This document shows positions 1-46,704 of a stretch of DNA of 64,000 nt, one piece after another (the stretch's first letter is position 1; each line of letters starts with the position of its first letter). The DNA is taken from assembly GCF_044324875.1 (NCBI RefSeq), contig NZ_CP172185.1. One strand, written 5' to 3'. The position numbers and the translations under genes are program-made. Origin of the DNA: Escherichia coli. Its GTDB lineage: Bacteria; Pseudomonadota; Gammaproteobacteria; Enterobacterales; Enterobacteriaceae. Below the pieces are notes generated by a model, which worked only from the letters and a program-made list of their open reading frames with translations, was not told the origin of the DNA and made no database searches.

Positions 1-122
1 CGCTGAAAAGCGTGCTGTGCATCGGTGGCTCCTGGCTGGTTCCGGCAGATGCGCTGGAAGCGGGCGATTACGACCGCATTACTAAGCTGGCGCGTGAAGC
101 TGTAGAAGGCGCTAAGCTGTAA
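1..122 (+). CDS. eda: KHG/KDPG aldolase, C-terminal fragment (5' end lies outside the window)
   Basis: Frame 3 reads ...[14 protein letters not shown] then TAA at 120-122; matches the Eda C-terminus and the expected eda-purT synteny. Confidence 0.7.
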
Positions 123-128
123 AAGTCA

Positions 129-158
129 AAATGCCCGATCCTCGATCGGGCATTTTGG
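129..158. terminator. Hairpin plus T-tract between convergent eda and purT; likely bidirectional intrinsic terminator
   Basis: atgcccgatc-ctc-gatcgggcat followed by tttt. Confidence 0.5.
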
Positions 159-176
159 TAGCGTTTTTCGCCGGGG

Positions 177-1355
177 CTAAGCTTGTACTTTTATCTGTGC
201 TGCGGCGTGCTTTGCGCGCTCAATCGCTTCATCAACACTCTCTGCAGTAGCCAGTGCCACCCCCAGACGACGGCTGCCATCAATTTCCGGCTTACCAAAT
301 AAACGAATCTGCAAACCTGCGCCTACGGCATTCTGCACATTATCAAACGTGACATTCTCACTGGTCAGTTGTGGCAGGATAACGGCAGAAGCTGCAGGAC
401 CATACTGACGGATCCCGCCAACCGGAAGTCCGAGAAAGGCTCGCACATGCAGGGCAAACTCCGAGAGATCCTGAGAAATTAACGTCACCATCCCGGTATC
501 ATGTGGGCGAGGGGAGACCTCACTGAAAATCACCTCATCACCACAGACAAACAGCTCGACACCAAACAGACCATAACCGCCCAGTGCCAGCACCACTTTA
601 CGGGCAATCTCCTGCGCACGTTCAAGGGCAAGCGGGCTCATTTGTTGTGGTTGCCAGGATTCACGATAGTCGCCATTTTCCTGGCGATGACCTACCGGTG
701 CACAGAAATGGACGCCATCCACCGCGCTGACGGTTAGCAGGGTAATTTCGAAGTCAAACTTAACGACGCCTTCAACAATTACGCGGCCCGCTCCGGCGCG
801 ACCGCCTTGCTGAGCGTACTCCCATGCTTGAGCAAGTTGCTCTGCAGAACGAATAAACGTCTGCCCTTTACCGGAAGAGCTCATCACCGGTTTAACAATG
901 CAGGGATAGCCGATGTCAGCAACCGCCTCGCGGAAAAGGCTTTCGCTATCGGCAAAACGATAAGTGGAAGTGGGCAGCTGCAGCTCTTCTGCCGCCAGGC
1001 GACGGATACCCTCGCGATTCATCGTTAATTTCGTTGCGCGCGCGCAGGGGACAACATTCAGCCCTTCCTCTTCAAGTTGGATCAGCATATCGGTGGCAAT
1101 AGCTTCGATCTCCGGCACGATATAATGTGGTTTTTCCAGTTCAACCACACGGCGTAATGCATCACCATCAAGCATATTAATGACATGGGAGCGATGCGCG
1201 ACATGCATAGCTGGCGCGTCGGCATAGCGATCGACGGCAATCACCTCTACGCCGAGACGCTGACACTCGATTGCCACTTCTTTACCCAGTTCACCGGAGC
1301 CTAATAACATCACGCGAGTTGCTGCCGGACGCAGCGCAGTGCCTAATAACGTCAT
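177..1355 (-). CDS. purT: Formate-dependent phosphoribosylglycinamide formyltransferase (GAR transformylase T)
   Basis: 392 aa ORF; ATP-grasp protein beginning [27 protein letters not shown]; length and sequence match PurT. Confidence 0.93.
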
Positions 1356-1392
1356 AACGAATATCCCCTGATTAATTCCGCGCGCAGTATAA

Positions 1393-1408
1393 ACGAAAAC
1401 GTTTGCGT
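1393..1408. promoter_or_regulatory. Candidate PurR operator upstream of purT
   Basis: acgaaaacgtttgcgt is a 16 bp palindrome matching the PurR box consensus ACGCAAACGTTTTCGT on the complementary strand; sits 38 bp upstream of the purT start. Confidence 0.6.
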
Positions 1409-1452
1409 GTGTCTTTATTGTTGATGTTGATTTCCCAACCGAGAAGAAATAT

Positions 1453-1472
1453 ACTGTATAAAATCACAGTTA
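1453..1472. promoter_or_regulatory. LexA (SOS) box upstream of yebG
   Basis: TACTGTATAAAATCACAGTT has the CTGT-N8-ACAG core of the LexA consensus; yebG is a known SOS gene. Confidence 0.7.
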
Positions 1473-1488
1473 TTATGAGAGGCTGCAA

Positions 1489-1779
1489 ATGGCGGTTGAA
1501 GTTAAATACGTAGTCATTCGTGAGGGCGAAGAGAAAATGTCGTTTACCAGCAAAAAGGAAGCCGATGCTTATGACAAAATGCTTGATACGGCGGATCTGC
1601 TTGACACCTGGCTGACAAATTCTCCAGTGCAAATGGAAGACGAGCAACGTGAAGCCCTTTCGCTATGGCTGGCAGAACAAAAAGATGTGCTGAGCACCAT
1701 TCTGAAAACCGGCAAATTACCGTCCCCACAGGTCGTCGGTGCTGAATCCGAAGAGGAAGATGCCTCACACGCGGCCTGA
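1489..1779 (+). CDS. yebG: DNA-damage-inducible protein YebG
   Basis: 96 aa ORF directly downstream of the LexA box; sequence and position match YebG. Confidence 0.85.
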   Translation: MAVEVKYVVIREGEEKMSFTSKKEADAYDKMLDTADLLDTWLTNSPVQMEDEQREALSLWLAEQKDVLSTILKTGKLPSPQVVGAESEEEDASHAA

Positions 1780-1797
1780 AGCAACTTGCGCTCCTGA

Positions 1798-2202
<405 letters not shown>

Positions 2203-2229
2203 TGGCTTCTGATAATTCGATTGACCGTT

Positions 2230-2314
2230 GGCGGATGCGGCGCGAATGCCTTGTCCGCCCCACAACGCACCACAATCGTAGGCCTGAGAAGACGCAACAG
2301 CGTCGCATCGGGCA
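2230..2314. repeat. BIME: two REP (repetitive extragenic palindromic) units in inverted orientation
   Basis: GGCGGATGCGGCGCGAATGCCTTGTCCGCC (2230-2263) and GTAGGCCTGAGAAGACGCAACAGCGTCGCATCGGGCA (2278-2314) resemble E. coli REP consensus sequences; located just after the yebF stop. Confidence 0.6.
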
Positions 2315-2528
2315 ATCAGCTTCAAACAGTGCCACTCAAAACGTCAAATTACTTTCACCTAAAATACCCTTATCACCTGATATACAGTGAATACCTTACC
2401 TGGCGCGAATTTCTTTGAATAACGGCCTACCGACCCGCTTATTTGCGCATCTTTTGTCTCGATATACATTTTCTGACATCCTCATCCGCTATGCTACAGG
2501 CACTAAAAATGGTTATTGAGGAGCAAAT

Positions 2529-3188
2529 ATGGCTAACTGGTTAAATCAACTGCAATCCTTGCTTGGGCAAAGCAGTTCTTCTGCCTCCTCGTCTGCGGAT
2601 CAGGGATTGGGCAAACTTTTAGTGCCAGGCGCATTAGGCGGACTGGCTGGGCTGCTGGTCGCAAATAAATCAGCACGTAAACTTCTTACGAAATATGGCA
2701 CCAACGCGTTACTGGTTGGCGGCGGAGCGGTCGCGGGTACGGTGCTGTGGAATAAATACAAAGATAAAATTCGCGCGGCGCATCAGGACGAACCGCAGTT
2801 TGGCGCGCAAAGTACGCCGCTGGATGAGCGTACGGAACGTTTGATCCTTGCGCTGGTCTTTGCCGCTAAAAGTGATGGTCATATTGATGCCAAAGAACGT
2901 GCGGCAATCGATCAGCAATTGCGTGAAGCCGGTGTGGAAGAACAGGGGCGTGTACTCATTGAGCAGGCAATCGAACAACCGCTGGATCCACAACGCCTGG
3001 CTACCGGGATTCGCAATGAAGAAGAGGCGCTGGAAATCTATTTCCTGAGCTGCGCGGCTATTGATATTGACCATTTTATGGAACGCAGTTACCTGAATGC
3101 ACTGGGTGACGCGCTGAAAATCCCCCAGGATGTTCGTGACGGCATTGAACGCGATCTCGAACAGCAAAAACGTACTTTGGCGGAATAA
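2529..3188 (+). CDS. yebE: Inner membrane protein YebE (DUF533)
   Basis: 219 aa ORF in the expected position after yebF. Confidence 0.85.
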
Positions 3189-3351
3189 TTCCGCTCTCAG
3201 GATAGCCTGAAGTTGACTATTTCGGGCTATCCAGAACCGCACAGCCATTTGAACAGGCTGATTTTCTCTGTCTGCATAACATTCGATATCCGCGCCATTA
3301 CCTGTCATCATGTGACTGCTCCCCGCCCTGTCGGGCAAGGCTTCCCACTTC

Positions 3352-4521
3352 TTAAGCCGCAACCGTCTGTGCTACGGATTTATGCTGGCCTCCATGGGCA
3401 GAAACGACGAGTCCCGCCGCTTGTAATTCCAGTATGCCCTTGCGTTTGATGTTGAGCGCCGCGTTGATATCGCGGTCATGTTCAACTCCACACTCTGGAC
3501 ACTGCCAGATGCGCTTATGTAATGGCATCTCCGACATTTTGTGACCGCAGCAGTGGCAGGTTTTCGAACTGGCGAACCATTGATCCAGTTTCACCAGATG
3601 CACACCTTTCTCTGTTGCTTTGTATTCCAGTTTTGTGATGAATCCAGACCATCCAGCATCGCCTATCGCACGAGCCAGATGGTGATTTTTCATCATATTT
3701 GCCGTTTTCAATGTCTCGACAATTACCGCTTGGTTTTCGTCAACAATTGCGCGAGATAACTTGTGCTGGAAATCGGCACGGGCACTGGCTACCCGTTCGT
3801 GAACGGCTGCAAGTTGTATTCTGGCTTTGCGCCTGTTTGCGTTCCCTTTTTTCTTACGGGACAGTGCTTTCTGCTTCCGGCGAAGGTTGCGACTTGCATT
3901 GATTAGGTGGCGGGGACTGGCAATTTTATTGCCGTCCGATTTGATGACAAAATGCGCCAGCCCCATATCCAGCCCTGTCACATTTGATATCAGTGCAGGC
4001 TTTGCCGGCGCTTCCATCCCGTCGTCACAAAGTAACGACGCGTAGTATTTCCCGGTTGCGCTGCGGCTCAACGTGATACTTTTCAGCATTCCCGTAATTT
4101 CACGATGTAAACGCGCTTCAATCGGCAAGATTTTCGGTATTTTTATCGCACCATCAAGGACTTTTATGCCAACACAATGATAGCTCGATTGTCTGCCGTG
4201 TTTACTTTTAAAGGTAGGTTTACCTGCTTTCAGTTTCGGATTGAAAAAGTTAGAAAAAGCCACGTCGAGGTTAATTACCGCCTGCTGCAACGCAATAGAA
4301 TCATATTCTTTAAGCCATCCATACCGGCGGGATTTCTTCGCCACTGCAAGCAGTGGTTTGAGGTCTTTACGCGGGTTTAAATTTACGCGGTGCCGCTGGT
4401 AAGAATGTTTCTTGATATGCAGAGCTTTGTTGTACGCAAAACGCACTGCACCGAACTGGGCGTTGATAAATTCAGCCTGTTCTGGTGTCGGGTAGATGCG
4501 TACTTTTGTTGCTCTTAACAT
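3352..4521 (-). CDS. tnpB: TnpB (IS605 OrfB family, RuvC-like RNA-guided nuclease)
   Basis: 389 aa; N-terminus MLRATKVRIYPTPEQAEFINAQFGAVRFAYNKAL typical of OrfB; putative RuvC triad residues in GLDMGLAHF, IVETLK and HDRDINAALNI; C-terminal zinc-finger cysteines CHCCGHK...CPECG. Confidence 0.85.
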   Translation of the reverse strand: MLRATKVRIYPTPEQAEFINAQFGAVRFAYNKALHIKKHSYQRHRVNLNPRKDLKPLLAVAKKSRRYGWLKEYDSIALQQAVINLDVAFSNFFNPKLKAGKPTFKSKHGRQSSYHCVGIKVLDGAIKIPKILPIEARLHREITGMLKSITLSRSATGKYYASLLCDDGMEAPAKPALISNVTGLDMGLAHFVIKSDGNKIASPRHLINASRNLRRKQKALSRKKKGNANRRKARIQLAAVHERVASARADFQHKLSRAIVDENQAVIVETLKTANMMKNHHLARAIGDAGWSGFITKLEYKATEKGVHLVKLDQWFASSKTCHCCGHKMSEMPLHKRIWQCPECGVEHDRDINAALNIKRKGILELQAAGLVVSAHGGQHKSVAQTVAA

Positions 4522-4577
4522 AATCAGCGCTCATTGATATAATGCTTTTATTTTAACACTTTAGGTAAATATATCAA

Positions 4578-5003
4578 TTGAGTAATCATGATGATTTACT
4601 GGCGGGATTTCTCCGCAAACGACACAGTGTCAGTAAGCTGGTTGTGCACCTTATTTTTACGACAAAGTATCGACGCAAACTATTCGACAGTCAGATGATC
4701 GCTCAGTTGCGTGAGGCTTTTGGCTCCGCTGCGGCAAAGCTTGAATGCGAAATTATTGAGATGGACGGGGAGCCAGACCATGTACACCTGCTGGTTGCCT
4801 ACCCGCCAAAACTGGCGGTCAGTGTGATGGTCAATAATTTAAAATCGGTATCATCACGTTTGCTACGCCAGCAGAACGCGCATTTACGTATGCAGAGTAA
4901 AACGGGGCTTTTGTGGTCGAGATCGTACTTTGTCTGTAGCACCGGAGAGGCAACGATTGAAACGCTCAGAGCCTACGTTCAGAGTCAGTCAACACCTGAT
5001 TGA
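4578..5003 (+). CDS. tnpA: IS200/IS605-family TnpA (HUH Y1 transposase); start codon uncertain
   Basis: 141 aa; motifs HLIFTTKYRRKLF, HUH HVHLL and catalytic-Tyr region SRSYFVCSTG; no in-frame ATG near the 5' end, so the ORF track used TTG at 4578. Confidence 0.75.
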   Translation: MSNHDDLLAGFLRKRHSVSKLVVHLIFTTKYRRKLFDSQMIAQLREAFGSAAAKLECEIIEMDGEPDHVHLLVAYPPKLAVSVMVNNLKSVSSRLLRQQNAHLRMQSKTGLLWSRSYFVCSTGEATIETLRAYVQSQSTPD

Positions 5004-5132
5004 TCTTTAAAGCCCTGCGGGCTTTTCGCCTTATATCCCCGCCCGCATTGGGCGAGGGTTTACGGCGTTTTTCGCTAAGCAATGACTACCCTGTTTCGCT
5101 TGCATCTCCGGTGAGTTTTGCCACCCTTATAA

Positions 5133-7879
<2,747 letters not shown>

Positions 7880-7902
7880 GGCATGCTCCAGGCCGAAAAA
7901 GC

Positions 7903-8559
7903 CTAGCGTAATGGAATGATATCGCCTTGCCAACCCTGTGATGAACGCTGACCGACTAACAATAATGAACCACGATCGGCGCGAACGATGAGACGACCAT
8001 GTTCATCCCATAGTGCACTGTTACCACGGGCATTTGCCATCAGCACGGCAATCGAGTACTGATGTGAAAAAAATTGTAAGCGACGGGCCGACGCCAGCAG
8101 GTCGGGTTCTCCCAGACATTGCCCTGTCGTAAACAGTGAACAGGTCGGGTCCATATCCATACCTTGCGGTTGTTCATCGACCACCGTGATGGTTCTGGAA
8201 CGACGGCCCAGACATGCACCATGACTCTGATGGTAGATCCCAGGCGTTTTTCGCCACGGTGCGAACACCGCAATTCCACGAATAAAGCGATCGTTATATT
8301 CAACGGGAAGGCCGGCAATGATGGTCATTCGCCAGGTCGTTGCAGCATAACAAAGCGGGTCTAACAGCGAGAGATCGGGTGGGGCAGGAAGGGCACGTCG
8401 CGAATAATCACACCCCAGTAAAGAAAGCGATGGAAAAACTAACAGCTGACATTGTTGCCTGGCGGCGGCCCTCACAAACTCCAGATGATGAGCTACCTGT
8501 TCGGTCAGTGAGGTTTTACGAGGCTCATATTGCGCTGCTGCAACTTTCCAGAACGACAT
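7903..8559 (-). CDS. yobB: Carbon-nitrogen hydrolase family protein YobB
   Basis: 218 aa ORF immediately upstream of exoX on the same strand. Confidence 0.8.
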   Translation of the reverse strand: MSFWKVAAAQYEPRKTSLTEQVAHHLEFVRAAARQQCQLLVFPSLSLLGCDYSRRALPAPPDLSLLDPLCYAATTWRMTIIAGLPVEYNDRFIRGIAVFAPWRKTPGIYHQSHGACLGRRSRTITVVDEQPQGMDMDPTCSLFTTGQCLGEPDLLASARRLQFFSHQYSIAVLMANARGNSALWDEHGRLIVRADRGSLLLVGQRSSQGWQGDIIPLR

Positions 8560-8660
8560 AATGACTTCCTTTTCAAAATGACTGCAAATTATGGGTGCGG
8601 TTTAGAAAATACTCATAATTTAGCAGGCGTTATGTAAGAAAGTGTAACTCTGTATAAGTT

Positions 8661-8891
8661 TTATTTAAGTTTGGGCTCGTAAGGTAAACGTGACAGATTG
8701 ACCGAAGCCAAACGGTGGGCGATAAGCCGCTCGCGAAACCAGCTGCGCAAATGTTCAGGCTGTTCACGTTCAACCGCTTCAGCGATCACCGGCATATTGT
8801 AGCGTTCTTTAAATGCCACCCCGGCCGCCGCCAAATCGACATTCACTTTATCCATTTCTGTTTGATCCAGTTTAGCCAGATTCTTCAGCAT
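8661..8891 (-). CDS. holE: DNA polymerase III theta subunit
   Basis: 76 aa from [40 protein letters not shown]; the ORF track shows a longer N-terminally extended frame. Confidence 0.85.
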
Positions 8892-9029
8892 TCTTAATCT
8901 CCTCATCATTCGCGGGCAAAAGTTACTAAGAGTGAGCCTGGATGGCAAGCCGGAATTGATGATCCTCGACTCAGACATTAGACAAGGTTATGCTCTGTAA
9001 AAAAGTTATTACAAAAAGGAATAGATAAT

Positions 9030-10706: not shown

Positions 10707-10792
10707 ACATTTAAGCTGATGACCACCGCGCTTTTTATTGACCATTTTGCACGCAAACTGGAAAACCTGGCGTCGTCATCTATTCTTAAAGG

Positions 10793-10895
10793 GCAAGGCA
10801 ACTAAGCCTGCATTAATGCCAACTTTTAGCGCACGGCTCTCTCCCAAGAGCCATTTCCCTGGACCGAATACAGGAATCGTGTTCGGTCTCTTTTT
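10793..10895 (+). ncRNA. sdsR: SdsR (RyeB) Hfq-dependent sRNA; antisense RyeA/SraC expected on the opposite strand across the same locus
   Basis: Recognised sequence GCAAGGCAACTAAGCCTGCATTAATGCCAACTTTTAGCGCACGGCTCTCTCCCAAGAGCCATTTCCCTGGACCGAATACAGGAATCGTGTTCGGTCTCTTTTT, ending in a terminator hairpin plus U-tract; located in the yebY-pphA intergenic region as in K-12. Confidence 0.7.
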
Positions 10896-11029
10896 ATCTG
10901 TTAAAAGCCAGAAGCATTCCCTTCGCTGACTTTATAGTCAACCATAACACACACTCTACTGTCTGAGTCCAGCGTTTTTTAACATTCTTGTTAAGATTAT
11001 GTGATCTTTAGCGCGGGAGGAAAATATTG

Positions 11030-22352: not shown

Positions 22353-23068
22353 TGCACAGAAAACCCCCAGCTAGGCTGGGGGTTCCGGAAAGCTTTCAGC
22401 TTTGAGCCAGTTATTAAAACCCCTTTTGATTTGTTAAAACACCTTGCGGTCTGGCAACTGCAAGTGTCAAACAAGTGTCAAACAAGAAATCAAAAGGGGG
22501 TCCCAATGGGGAACGAAAAGAGCTTAGCGCACACCCGATGGAACTGTAAATATCACATAGTATTTGCGCCAAAATACCGAAGACAGGTGTTCTACAGAGA
22601 GAAGCGTAGAGCAATAGGCTGTATTTTGAGAAAGCTGTGTGAGTGGAAAAGTGTACGGATTCTGGAAGCTGAATGCTGTGCAGATCATATCCATATGCTT
22701 GTGGAGATCCCGCCCAAAATGAGCGTATCAGGCTTTATGGGATATCTGAAAGGGAAAAGCAGTCTGATGCTTTACGAGCAGTTTGGTGATTTGAAATTCA
22801 AATACAGGAACAGGGAGTTCTGGTGCAGAGGGTATTACGTCGATACGGTGGGTAAGAACACGGCGAAGATACAGGATTACATAAAGCACCAGCTTGAAGA
22901 GGATAAAATGGGAGAGCAGTTATCGATTCCCTATCCGGGCAGCCCGTTTACGGGCCGTAAGTAACGAAGTTGGATGCAAATGTCAGATCGTGTGCGCCTG
23001 TTAGGGCGCGGCTGGTAAGAGAGCCTTATAGGCGCATTTGAAAAACCTCCGGCTATGCCGGAGGATAT
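22353..23068 (+). mobile_element. IS200-like insertion sequence (about 0.7 kb; boundaries approximate)
   Basis: Contains an IS200-type tnpA; 5' region has a perfect hairpin (cccccagc-tagg-gctggggg, 22364-22382) and a long stem pairing ccccttttgatttgtt with aacaagaaatcaaaaggggg that would sequester the RBS; inserted between the htpX terminator and the yebQ stop. Confidence 0.6.
22506..22964 (+). CDS. tnpA: IS200 TnpA (HUH Y1 transposase)
   Basis: 152 aa from MGNEKSLAHTRWNCKYHIVFAPKYRRQVFY; HUH motif DHIHMLVEIPPK; near-identical to Salmonella IS200 TnpA as I recall it. Confidence 0.88.
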   Translation: MGNEKSLAHTRWNCKYHIVFAPKYRRQVFYREKRRAIGCILRKLCEWKSVRILEAECCADHIHMLVEIPPKMSVSGFMGYLKGKSSLMLYEQFGDLKFKYRNREFWCRGYYVDTVGKNTAKIQDYIKHQLEEDKMGEQLSIPYPGSPFTGRK

Positions 23069-26460: not shown

Positions 26461-27129
26461 TCCTTCCTCAATCTTGAGTAACCCCGTCGTTGAAGGGTTA
26501 CTCAATTCATCCTGATTATACGCACTGTCATGGTGCAACTGCTTCAAATTAAAACTCTGGTCTGACTTCAAATAATTATCATATTATTTATTTGCGTAAC
26601 GGGATATCAGAAAAAGATATTTAGCCCATTAATTTATTAGGATGTTTACATCGGATTTGTGATTAAGCGTGGTATTATTTATTAGCGAAACGTTTCTCTC
26701 TTGATTTTTTTGCGCATTTATCAATTTTTCTTATTTTAAATTTACAATACCTTTGGCGATTGACTTCTCTTTGGGGTGATCTATAGCCGTTAACTGACTG
26801 TTTTATGAGAAAAAGTGATATAACTTTTTATTCATTGCATAGCAGAAAATGTGATATTGCACGCACTATGTAATAACTTCTCCCACTGGCCTGGAACAAC
26901 TGAACTTATTGAACTATGTTAGAAAATACGTCAGTTTAAGTATCTGCCTGAACTGGCAAGGTTAAGCACAATGATATATCGGCGCGTATTCCGTTGCATA
27001 AGTGTGCAAAAAAAGTGGAAGACGTATCGAGATTTGTGCGTCTGATCGAGACATGTTTAAAAATGGCTTGCCATAATTAACGTTGTATGTGATAACAGAT
27101 TTCGGGTTAAACGAGGTACAGTTCTGTTT

Positions 27130-27273
27130 ATGTGTGGCATTTTCAGTAAAGAAGTCCTGAGTAAACACGTTGACGTTGAATACCGCTTCTCTGCCGAGCC
27201 TTATATTGGTGCCTCATGCAGTAATGTGTCAGTTTTATCTATGTTATGCCTGCGGGCGAAGAAAACAATCTAA
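27130..27273 (+). CDS. yobF: Small protein YobF (47 aa; missed by the ORF track)
   Basis: ATG at 27130; translation [47 protein letters not shown]; ends 12 bp before cspC. Confidence 0.75.
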
Positions 27274-27285
27274 GGAATTTTTCAA

Positions 27286-27495
27286 ATGGCAAAGATTAAA
27301 GGTCAGGTTAAGTGGTTCAACGAGTCTAAAGGTTTTGGCTTCATTACTCCGGCTGATGGCAGCAAAGACGTGTTCGTACACTTCTCTGCTATCCAGGGTA
27401 ATGGCTTCAAAACTCTGGCTGAAGGTCAGAACGTTGAGTTCGAAATTCAGGACGGTCAGAAAGGTCCGGCAGCTGTTAACGTAACAGCTATCTGA
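27286..27495 (+). CDS. cspC: Cold-shock-domain protein CspC
   Basis: 69 aa [40 protein letters not shown]1/RNP2 motifs. Confidence 0.93.
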
Positions 27496-27660
27496 TCGAA
27501 TCCACTGATCTGAAGTGTGAATACGCTTCAATCTCGCTATAAAGCCTCGTCGAATGCGAGGCTTTTTACTTTGCTTTATCTTCGCTCCAGTCGTTCGGAT
27601 ATTTGCCCGCCGCGTGATTCGCGTTACACTTGCGGCCTTTAGTGTCCTGCCGGAGTTGTC

Positions 27661-44973: not shown

Positions 44974-46659
44974 TTGAAGAAGGTTTGGCTTAACCGTTAT
45001 CCCGCGGACGTTCCGACGGAGATCAACCCTGACCGTTATCAATCTCTGGTAGATATGTTTGAGCAGTCGGTCGCGCGCTACGCCGATCAGCCTGCGTTTG
45101 TGAATATGGGGGAGGTGATGACCTTCCGCAAGCTGGAAGAACGCAGTCGCGCGTTTGCCGCTTATTTGCAACAAGGGTTGGGGCTGAAGAAAGGCGATCG
45201 CGTTGCGTTGATGATGCCTAATTTATTGCAATATCCGGTGGCGCTGTTTGGCATTTTGCGTGCCGGGATGATTGTCGTAAACGTTAACCCGTTGTATACC
45301 CCGCGTGAACTTGAGCATCAGCTTAACGATAGCGGCGCATCGGCGATTGTTATCGTGTCTAACTTTGCCCACACTCTGGAAAAAGTGGTTGATAAAACCG
45401 CCGTTCAGCACGTAATTCTGACCCGTATGGGCGATCAGCTATCTACGGCAAAAGGCACGGTAGTCAATTTCGTTGTTAAATACATCAAGCGTCTGGTGCC
45501 GAAATACCATCTGCCAGATGCCATTTCATTTCGTAGCGCCCTGCACAACGGCTACCGGATGCAGTACGTCAAACCCGAACTGGTGCCGGAAGATTTAGCT
45601 TTCCTGCAATACACCGGCGGCACCACAGGTGTGGCGAAAGGCGCGATGCTGACTCACCGCAATATGCTGGCGAACCTGGAACAGGTTAACGCGACCTATG
45701 GTCCGCTGTTGCATCCGGGCAAAGAGCTGGTGGTGACGGCGCTGCCGCTGTATCACATTTTTGCACTGACCATTAACTGCCTGCTGTTTATCGAACTGGG
45801 TGGGCAGAACCTGCTTATCACTAACCCGCGCGATATTCCAGGGTTGGTAAAAGAGTTAGCGAAATATCCGTTTACCGCTATCACTGGCGTTAACACCTTG
45901 TTCAATGCGTTGCTGAACAATAAAGAGTTCCAGCAGCTGGATTTCTCCAGTCTGCATCTTTCCGCAGGCGGAGGGATGCCTGTTCAGCAAGTGGTGGCAG
46001 AACGTTGGGTGAAACTGACTGGACAGTATCTGCTGGAAGGTTATGGCCTGACCGAGTGTGCGCCGCTGGTCAGCGTTAACCCGTATGATATTGATTATCA
46101 TAGTGGTAGCATCGGTTTGCCGGTGCCGTCGACGGAAGCCAAACTGGTGGATGACGACGACAACGAAGTACCACCGGGTCAACCGGGTGAGCTTTGTGTC
46201 AAAGGACCGCAGGTGATGCTGGGTTACTGGCAGCGTCCGGATGCTACCGATGAGATCATCAAAAATGGCTGGTTACACACCGGCGACATCGCGGTGATGG
46301 ATGAAGAAGGATTCCTGCGCATTGTCGATCGTAAAAAAGACATGATTCTGGTTTCCGGTTTTAACGTCTATCCCAACGAGATTGAAGATGTCGTCATGCA
46401 GCATCCTGGAGTACAGGAAGTCGCGGCTGTTGGCGTACCTTCCGGCTCCAGTGGTGAAGCGGTGAAAATCTTCGTAGTGAAAAAAGATCCATCGCTTACC
46501 GAAGAGTCACTGGTGACTTTTTGCCGCCGTCAGCTCACGGGCTACAAAGTACCGAAGCTGGTGGAGTTTCGTGATGAGTTACCGAAATCTAACGTCGGAA
46601 AAATTTTGCGACGAGAATTACGTGACGAAGCGCGCGGCAAAGTGGACAATAAAGCCTGA
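44974..46659 (+). CDS. fadD: Long-chain fatty acyl-CoA synthetase
   Basis: 561 aa from a TTG start ([25 protein letters not shown]); AMP-binding motif [11 protein letters not shown]. Confidence 0.92.
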
Positions 46660-46678
46660 GCGTTAAGTCAGTCGTCAG

Positions 46679-46704
46679 ACGCCGGTTAATCCGGCGTTTT
46701 TTTT
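46679..46704 (+). terminator. Intrinsic terminator after fadD
   Basis: cgccgg-ttaat-ccggcg followed by tttttttt. Confidence 0.55.

Follow-up and report, generated by a model that had tools for sequence, protein, structure and literature searches.

An intact ISEc46 element at the yebE–ptrB site of Escherichia coli and its predicted ωRNA-guided TnpB

Introduction

What has been inserted between yebE and ptrB in the Escherichia coli genome represented by contig NZ_CP172185.1 (assembly GCF_044324875.1), and is the TnpB encoded there still an RNA-guided nuclease that serves its own transposon? The stretch analysed here, called the window, comprises 64,000 nucleotides of this contig, and all coordinates refer to it. 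A preliminary description placed an IS605-family insertion sequence (IS) with divergent tnpA and tnpB genes at 3190–5080, regarded its TnpB as intact and expected the insertion to be specific to this strain. Here, we delimit a 1,763 bp insertion that by its sequence is an intact copy of the catalogued element ISEc46. We consider it quite probable that this copy is mobile through its TnpA and that its TnpB, directed by a predicted guide RNA (omegaRNA, ωRNA), promotes retention of the element.

Results and discussion

Boundaries and identity of the insertion

Alignment with the empty yebE–ptrB site of strain 103, with which K-12 agrees, defines the inserted DNA as exactly 3312–5074. The empty-site joint of strain 103 reads ...ACCTGTCATCAT/CTAAGCAATG..., where the slash marks the point of insertion; the occupied site corresponds to CATCAT/CTAAG plus exactly 1,763 bp, with zero repeated bases. 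Neither junction contains a duplicated or ambiguous base, a target-site duplication is absent and the element has no terminal inverted repeats. The segment 3190–3311, which had been counted as part of the element, consists of native intergenic DNA and likewise occurs in genomes without it, and the earlier left coordinate thus lay 122 bp too far out. The expectation that K-12 carries nothing at this site was correct: the yebE–ptrB spacer of MG1655 is 208 bp long and free of insertions.

ISEc46 is an ISfinder name that is used by the NCBI pipeline PGAP and by MobileElementFinder. In RefSeq, PGAP labels the genes of such copies as `IS200/IS605-like element ISEc46 family transposase' and `RNA-guided endonuclease InsQ/TnpB family protein'. 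Copies annotated in this way are 99.2–99.8% identical to the window element over its full length (1–1763), as judged via the RefSeq annotation of the copies, and the window copy differs from them in nothing of substance. On sequence grounds, 3312–5074 is an intact ISEc46 of the IS200/IS605 family with divergent genes, an arrangement that is also found in IS605 from Helicobacter pylori. The element was therefore already known and named, and its TnpB was already labelled as an RNA-guided endonuclease.

TnpA matches Pfam Y1_Tnp (6e-39) and NCBIfam transpos_IS200 (141.8 bits compared with a cutoff of 55) and is 100% identical to WP_000064873.1. It aligns with the transposase structures 2A6M and 2VHG, which relate it to IS608 of H. 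pylori, and in the alignment with solved IS200/IS605 transposases both the HUH motif (His68-Val-His70) and the catalytic Tyr133 are retained. This HUH/Y1 TnpA, the subterminal hairpins, the lack of inverted repeats and of a duplication, a fixed target motif and mobility as a unit are all features of the IS200/IS605 family. The ORFs (open reading frames), Pfam, NCBIfam and the ends thus bear out the original assignment to an IS605-type element with divergent tnpA and tnpB.

Ends and target site

The same 1,763 bp unit recurs at a second E. coli site, inside an IclR-family gene. Read on the minus strand, which is the sense of tnpB, both sites have CTTAG directly before the tnpA-side end and unrelated sequences after the tnpB-side end. 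Because CTTAG is shared only in this reading, the functional top strand is taken as the minus strand of the window, with 5074 as the left end (LE) and 3312 as the right end (RE). The plus strand was considered as the active strand and rejected: its 5′ flanks at the two sites (TCATCAT and ATCAAGG) contain no common motif.

TTAG belongs to the host DNA and is present in the empty sites. In relatives of the element it precedes 38 of 40 distinct LE junctions, and the remaining two junctions deviate from it at a single base (TTCG and TTAA); on this junction evidence TTAG is the target of TnpA. IS605 and IS608 likewise have no inverted repeats, cause no duplication and insert 3′ of a fixed short motif, but this motif is TTTAA in IS605 and TTAC in IS608, and their end sequences and host range also differ from those of ISEc46. 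In ISDra2 from Deinococcus radiodurans the corresponding target and target-adjacent motif (TAM) is TTGAT (PMC10097598).

Each end of ISEc46 carries a subterminal hairpin. The imperfect LE hairpin is conserved in relatives, and the RE hairpin shows compensatory changes: one C-G pair is replaced by G-C in 14 sequences and by U-A in three, and another C-G pair by A-U in nine. In IS608 and ISDra2 hairpins of this kind are bound by TnpA on single-stranded DNA, and the two hairpins of ISEc46 are presumed to be recognized by its TnpA in the same manner. The four bases 5′ of the hairpins are AAAC at LE, to be paired with TTAG, and GAAG at RE, to be paired with the terminal TCAC. In IS608 the pairs formed by such guide tetranucleotides are reportedly TTAC/AAAG and TCAA/GAAT. 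AAAC/TTAG and GAAG/TCAC appear to fit this scheme, with the last pair changed on both sides in each. A further hairpin, located just 3′ of the tnpA stop codon, retains its stem through compensatory changes, with different sequences in distant relatives (for example AAGACGC...GCGTCTT and TTGAGGC...GCCTCAA). It is a likely terminator of tnpA and a likely second LE hairpin.

In some Photorhabdus copies an approximately 510 bp non-coding element lies inside the loop of the LE hairpin (locus L027, 857–1369; also locus L013 near 956 and locus L023 near 1260). It has terminal inverted repeats GAGGGTGTCGCAAAAG and CTTTTGCGACATCCTC and is flanked by a duplicated CAGTGCG. It resembles a miniature inverted-repeat transposable element, and it would split the presumed TnpA hairpin and so probably immobilize those copies.

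TnpB retains its catalytic residues

TnpB contains the Pfam domains HTH_OrfB_IS605, OrfB_IS605 and Cas12f1-like_TNB and scores 339.7 bits against NCBIfam guided_TnpB (cutoff 100). The motifs that had been read from its 389 residues are all present: GLDMGL at residue 183, IVETLK at 267, HDRD at 348 and the zinc-finger motifs CHCC and CPEC at 322 and 341. Residues 4–380 align with ISDra2 TnpB (PDB entries 8EXA, 8H1J and 8BF8; E = 9e-74), and from this alignment we estimate a full-length identity of about 45%. The RuvC residues Asp185, Glu269 and Asp351 lie opposite Asp191, Glu278 and Asp361 of ISDra2 TnpB, such that the triad contains no substitution, and the zinc-finger cysteines Cys322/Cys325 and Cys341/Cys344 are conserved. 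A single residue distinguishes the protein from WP_000942660.1, namely Ala384 in place of threonine. Against seven relatives with co-linear ORFs the ratio of non-synonymous to synonymous substitution rates (dN/dS) of tnpB is 0.066–0.089, a sign of strong purifying selection throughout the family.

In Enterobacterales some TnpB derivatives have become nuclease-dead, TldR-type proteins (PMC10705468). That the TnpB of ISEc46 is a domesticated RNA-guided regulator of this kind has next to no probability, and no specific observation speaks for it. The full-length protein retains Asp185, Glu269 and Asp351 as well as the zinc finger, and tnpA and both transposon ends are present in a unit that is mobile as a whole. 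As both the RuvC triad and the transposon context are retained, we do not assign it to the TldR type.

A conserved, predicted RNA scaffold at the right end

A guide RNA had been proposed on the minus strand at 3190–3400, across the 3′ end of tnpB and the end of the element. Covarying structure is indeed found on this strand and across these two features, while its extent has to be revised to 3312–3422. For 39 non-redundant copies, which are 66–93% identical to the window, the final 200 nt were aligned and analysed with RNAalifold and by counting pairs. The structure contains 36 pairs; 98.9% of the cells are standard-paired compared with 88.7% in shuffled alignments, and in 15 pairs both partners have undergone compensatory change. 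None of 500 shuffles reaches the covariation score of 0.354 (0.164 in shuffles), and controls in which the partners are slid by 1–3 columns give 0.05–0.09, which is four to seven times lower.

All supported helices lie within the final 111 nt of the element. The tnpB coding sequence includes stems 1 and 3 as well as one half of stem 2, and its synonymous divergence is 0.14–0.42 in the last 111 nt of the gene and 0.55–0.74 elsewhere in it. The comparative analysis thus shows a conserved, predicted scaffold that extends across the 3′ end of tnpB and RE and ends at the transposon boundary. A covariance model built from the scaffold core and scanned over the window scores 125.7 bits at 3431–3312 and finds no second ωRNA-like element in the 64 kb. 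RNAalifold also proposed that the HDRD codons form a 3 bp helix with AGTCAC (columns 46–48/215–217). This helix shows no covariation and was replaced, by analogy to ISDra2, by a candidate pseudoknot in which the loop of stem 1, GACU (3413–3410), can pair with AGUC (3317–3314, positions −6 to −3) in 96.6% of the cells.

Cryo-electron microscopy (cryo-EM) of the ISDra2 ωRNA shows a 116 nt scaffold with a stem 1, a stem 2 that encloses stem 3, a pseudoknot between the loop of stem 1 and positions −5 to −3, and a stem 4 with a UUUA tetraloop ahead of the guide (PMC10097598). In both systems the scaffold (about 111–116 nt) overlaps the 3′ end of tnpB and RE, and the order of the stems and the complementarity between loop and 3′ end are the same. 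The UUUA tetraloop recurs in stem 4 of many relatives of ISEc46. The two elements also share the full-length homology of TnpB, the D-E-D triad and the zinc finger, and differ in that tnpA and tnpB are co-directional in ISDra2 and divergent in ISEc46.

The conserved structure could in principle be an extended RE, a single-stranded DNA signal for TnpA from which no guide RNA is made. Covariation alone cannot separate DNA stems from RNA stems, and the hairpin at 3321–3340 resembles the LE hairpin and is of the type bound by TnpA in IS608 and ISDra2. However, stems 1–3 reach 111 nt inward, beyond the single subterminal hairpin of the family, and LE has no counterpart to them. G-U pairs are invariant or frequent at alignment columns 103/119, 106/116, 132/178, 144/166 and 188/208; such pairs are stable in RNA and, as G-T, poor in DNA, which argues for RNA over DNA without being proof. 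The stem order and the complementarity between loop and 3′ end reproduce the ISDra2 ωRNA known from cryo-EM, and the protein encoded alongside is similar to ISDra2 TnpB over its full length. We therefore regard a purely DNA-based function as very improbable and treat the structure as a predicted ωRNA scaffold.

The predicted guide and a proposed cycle

The position of the guide is deduced from the conserved RE boundary AGTCAC/. In about 60 related copies from many genera homology to the window ends exactly at this point and is followed by unrelated DNA. The length of the guide, 16 nt, is borrowed from ISDra2. On the minus strand the 16 nt following RE are ATGATGACAGGTAATG, and the predicted guide of this copy therefore comes from the flank toward yebE, as anticipated. 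TTAG plus the guide (20 nt) is found without a mismatch at the empty site in both K-12 and strain 103, and nothing in the window apart from the occupied junction resembles it. TTAG is expected to be the TAM of TnpB as well as the target of TnpA, following the rule known from ISDra2 and related elements.

From these features we propose the following cycle, in which ISDra2 and related work serve as the model for how the RNA is transcribed and processed, for RNA-guided cleavage, for the identity of the TAM and for the effect on retention. TnpA, a single-domain HUH/Y1 enzyme, would excise and insert the minus (top) strand as single-stranded DNA through the hairpins at its ends, and would place LE directly 3′ of TTAG without duplicating the target. 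tnpB would be transcribed from a central divergent promoter. The 3′ part of the transcript, corresponding to the last ∼111 nt of the element, would fold into a scaffold of four stems, probably with the pseudoknot next to the guide, and ∼16 nt of host sequence past RE would act as the guide. The TnpB–ωRNA complex would then cut DNA in which TTAG is followed by AUGAUGACAGGUAAUG. This is the joint that is re-created on excision, and it is identical to every unoccupied yebE–ptrB site examined. Cutting of the empty joint would favour repair from an element-bearing copy, as a result of which the IS would be retained. Cleavage activity has been demonstrated for ISDra2, and by analogy it is expected for ISEc46. 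For other IS605-family elements, TnpB cleavage of the excised donor joint and transposon retention have been shown (PMC10055086).

An inverted repeat, GGATAGCC...GGCTATCC, is located at 3200–3232, 12 bp after the yebE stop codon. Since empty sites have it too, it belongs to the host and is probably the yebE terminator. Transcripts of tnpB and the ωRNA that read through RE would reach this hairpin ∼80 nt beyond it.

Distribution in E. coli and relatives

Window positions 2900–5400 were compared by megablast with 5,426 complete E. coli genomes, all but one of which matched. The full query is covered in 400 genomes (∼7%) and the remainder match the flanks alone. A query made of the joined flanks finds the uninterrupted empty site in 5,025 genomes, complementary to the 400 that are occupied. 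Contrary to what had been expected, the insertion is thus not limited to one strain but restricted to a minority of lineages. With the element alone as query, 455 genomes give matches that span 80% or more of it, and the median copy number per genome is one. Of seven occupied loci that were inspected, six are at yebE–ptrB and one is the copy in the IclR-family gene, which adjoins yfaY.

Occupancy of the same site in many genomes might in part result from homing, a gene-drive-like spread in which TnpB cuts the resident empty allele and the IS is copied in. The 400 occupied genomes carry several different yebE and ptrB alleles, and the predicted guide plus TTAG matches the empty allele of the other ∼5,000 genomes, which could be cut when element-bearing DNA enters such a strain. 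We consider a contribution of this kind distinctly unlikely, since the occupied sites have flank haplotypes of their own.

Beyond E. coli, a scan of a genome collection returned 80 related loci with 63–100% protein identity from Photorhabdus, Serratia, Xenorhabdus, Proteus, Rahnella, Cedecea, Pantoea, Vibrio, Idiomarina, Shewanella and other genera. In Photorhabdus close relatives are multi-copy, with many distinct flanks. One contig of 1,960 bp (JAIJJM010000608.1, labelled `MAG: Collinsella sp.') contains ISEc46 with the exact E. coli yebE–ptrB flanks at both ends. It is almost certainly E. coli DNA that was mis-binned into an actinobacterial metagenome-assembled genome.

A TnpB with ∼83% protein identity (78–81% at the DNA level) is found on E. 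coli plasmids (for example NZ_AP027555.1, 25193–26445, and CP082497.1, 90976–92148) and is common on Escherichia and Salmonella plasmids. Often no annotated tnpA adjoins it, and one copy lies next to an antirestriction gene. These plasmid genes may derive from a sister element of which only tnpB is left.

Is the element still active?

Several observations weigh against an active, RNA-guided element. In E. coli ISEc46 is nearly always single-copy and has been seen at only two insertion sites; for this reason current transposition within the species may be rare. Half of the few tnpB differences within E. coli are non-synonymous (6/12 and 4/8 nucleotide differences), and selection on tnpB within the species is therefore not demonstrable. 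The candidate pseudoknot shows no covariation in the 39-sequence alignment, its 3′ strand being invariant. Rfam has no family matching at RE, either in E-value mode on 1–9000 or in gathering mode on the whole window, which says nothing against an RNA because Rfam holds no matching ωRNA model. The single-sequence fold of 3312–3540 is marginal relative to shuffled sequences (z = −1.9); it was not used further, as its pairings differ in part from the comparative structure. Finally, no functional study of ISEc46 was found in the searchable literature.

In stem 3 of the window copy itself two pairs are non-standard, A-C (3383/3359) and A-G (3373/3367), and stem 4 contains one G-U pair. Four of the 13 differences between this copy and the one in the IclR-family gene cluster within 47 bp (3337, 3372–3373 and 3383), a segment that contributes to stems 3 and 4 and encodes the C-terminal tail of TnpB. 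Two of the four break peripheral pairs and one gives Ala384 instead of the common Thr384. The non-standard pairs are not expected to matter, because they fall mostly in that portion of stem 3 for which the ISDra2 structure shows disorder.

Much of this would also be seen if the element had been inherited vertically at one ancestral site, with its genes intact through youth or slow drift and TnpB–ωRNA idle today. A median copy number of one, two sites among 5,426 genomes and occupied sites with their own flank haplotypes would all fit such a passenger. Recent gain or loss in the lineage of the window was looked for, and no empty site was found with flanks more than 99.0% identical to those of the window; the closest ones reach this value over 1,200 bp. 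The non-synonymous half of the tnpB differences and the two broken pairs in the window copy point in the same direction. Against this, none of the E. coli copies inspected has lost an ORF, an end or a catalytic residue, although copies diverge from one another by up to 0.8%. The second site records at least one transposition within the species, the Photorhabdus relatives occur in multiple copies with many different flanks and the broken pairs lie, for the most part, where stem 3 is disordered in ISDra2. On balance an idle passenger appears unlikely to us, and we favour an intact, TnpA-mobile ISEc46 with a TnpB that is probably ωRNA-guided and would promote its retention.

Beyond correct annotation the significance of this assignment is slight. 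The full anatomy of ISEc46 was not found in the searchable literature, nor were published data on an ωRNA, a TAM or activity; the name occurs only in lists produced by mobile-element finders. Searches for TnpB with TTAG and for IS605 with TTAG returned only mobile-element inventories or unrelated matches. What is added here are the exact ends of ISEc46, TTAG as the target and presumed TAM, a covariation-supported scaffold of ∼111 nt and a copy-specific guide of 16 nt. As an element native to E. coli, ISEc46 would lend itself well to studying how TnpB retains a transposon; ∼93% of sequenced strains carry a perfect natural target in the form of the empty site.

Features of the element and its surroundings

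The coordinates of the element and its parts are collected in Table 1. The spacer between tnpB and tnpA is 56 bp long.

Table 1. Features of the ISEc46 copy in the window and of the adjoining host DNA.
Feature	Position	Strand	Basis
Complete ISEc46-family IS200/IS605 element, 1,763 bp	3312–5074	−	Empty sites, second-site copy, PGAP naming
tnpB, 389-residue RNA-guided endonuclease homologue	3352–4521	−	Pfam, NCBIfam, ISDra2 alignment
tnpA, 141-residue Y1 (HUH) transposase, TTG start	4578–5003	+	Pfam, NCBIfam, solved-structure alignment
TTAG, host DNA outside the element	5075–5078	−	Directly 5′ of LE; present in empty sites; both E. coli sites
LE subterminal imperfect hairpin, CCCTCGCCC-AATGC-GGGCGGGG	5037–5058	−	Sequence reading; conserved in relatives
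Hairpin AAAGCCC-TGC-GGGCTTT followed by T	5009–5026	+	Just 3′ of tnpA stop; sequence reading
RE subterminal hairpin, CCTTGCCC-GACA-GGGCGGGG	3321–3340	−	Also ωRNA stem 4
Predicted ωRNA scaffold core, positions −111 to −1	3312–3422	−	Comparative structure
Stem 1	3422–3402	−	Comparative structure
Stem 2	3398–3394 with 3348–3344	−	Comparative structure
Stem 3, nested in stem 2	3390–3355	−	Comparative structure
Stem 4, terminal	3340–3321	−	Comparative structure
Predicted 16 nt guide, AUGAUGACAGGUAAUG	3311–3296	−	Host DNA 3′ of RE toward yebE
Promoter-like TTGATA-16-TAAAAT, 10/12	4577–4550	−	Consensus scan alone
Promoter-like TTAACA-17-TATAAT, 11/12	4515–4543	+	Consensus scan alone

Between LE and the start codon of ptrB, which lies downstream on the plus strand, there are only 85 bp (5075–5159), and tnpA points toward ptrB. 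In carriers the insertion may displace or replace part of the upstream regulatory region of ptrB.

On the other side, in the yebF–yebE interval, two minus-strand segments (2184–2260 and 2281–2332) give sub-threshold matches to naRNA4 (29.4 and 26.3 bits compared with a gathering score of 59.5). These matches look like palindromic repeats of the REP (repetitive extragenic palindromic) type. Elsewhere in the window, Rfam matches above the gathering score are located at 10755–10899, 22362–22496, 27110–27570 and 46618–46703. The families found are SraC/RyeA and SdsR/RyeB (on opposite strands), STnc490, the cspA thermoregulator and sroD, which are ordinary E. coli small RNAs.

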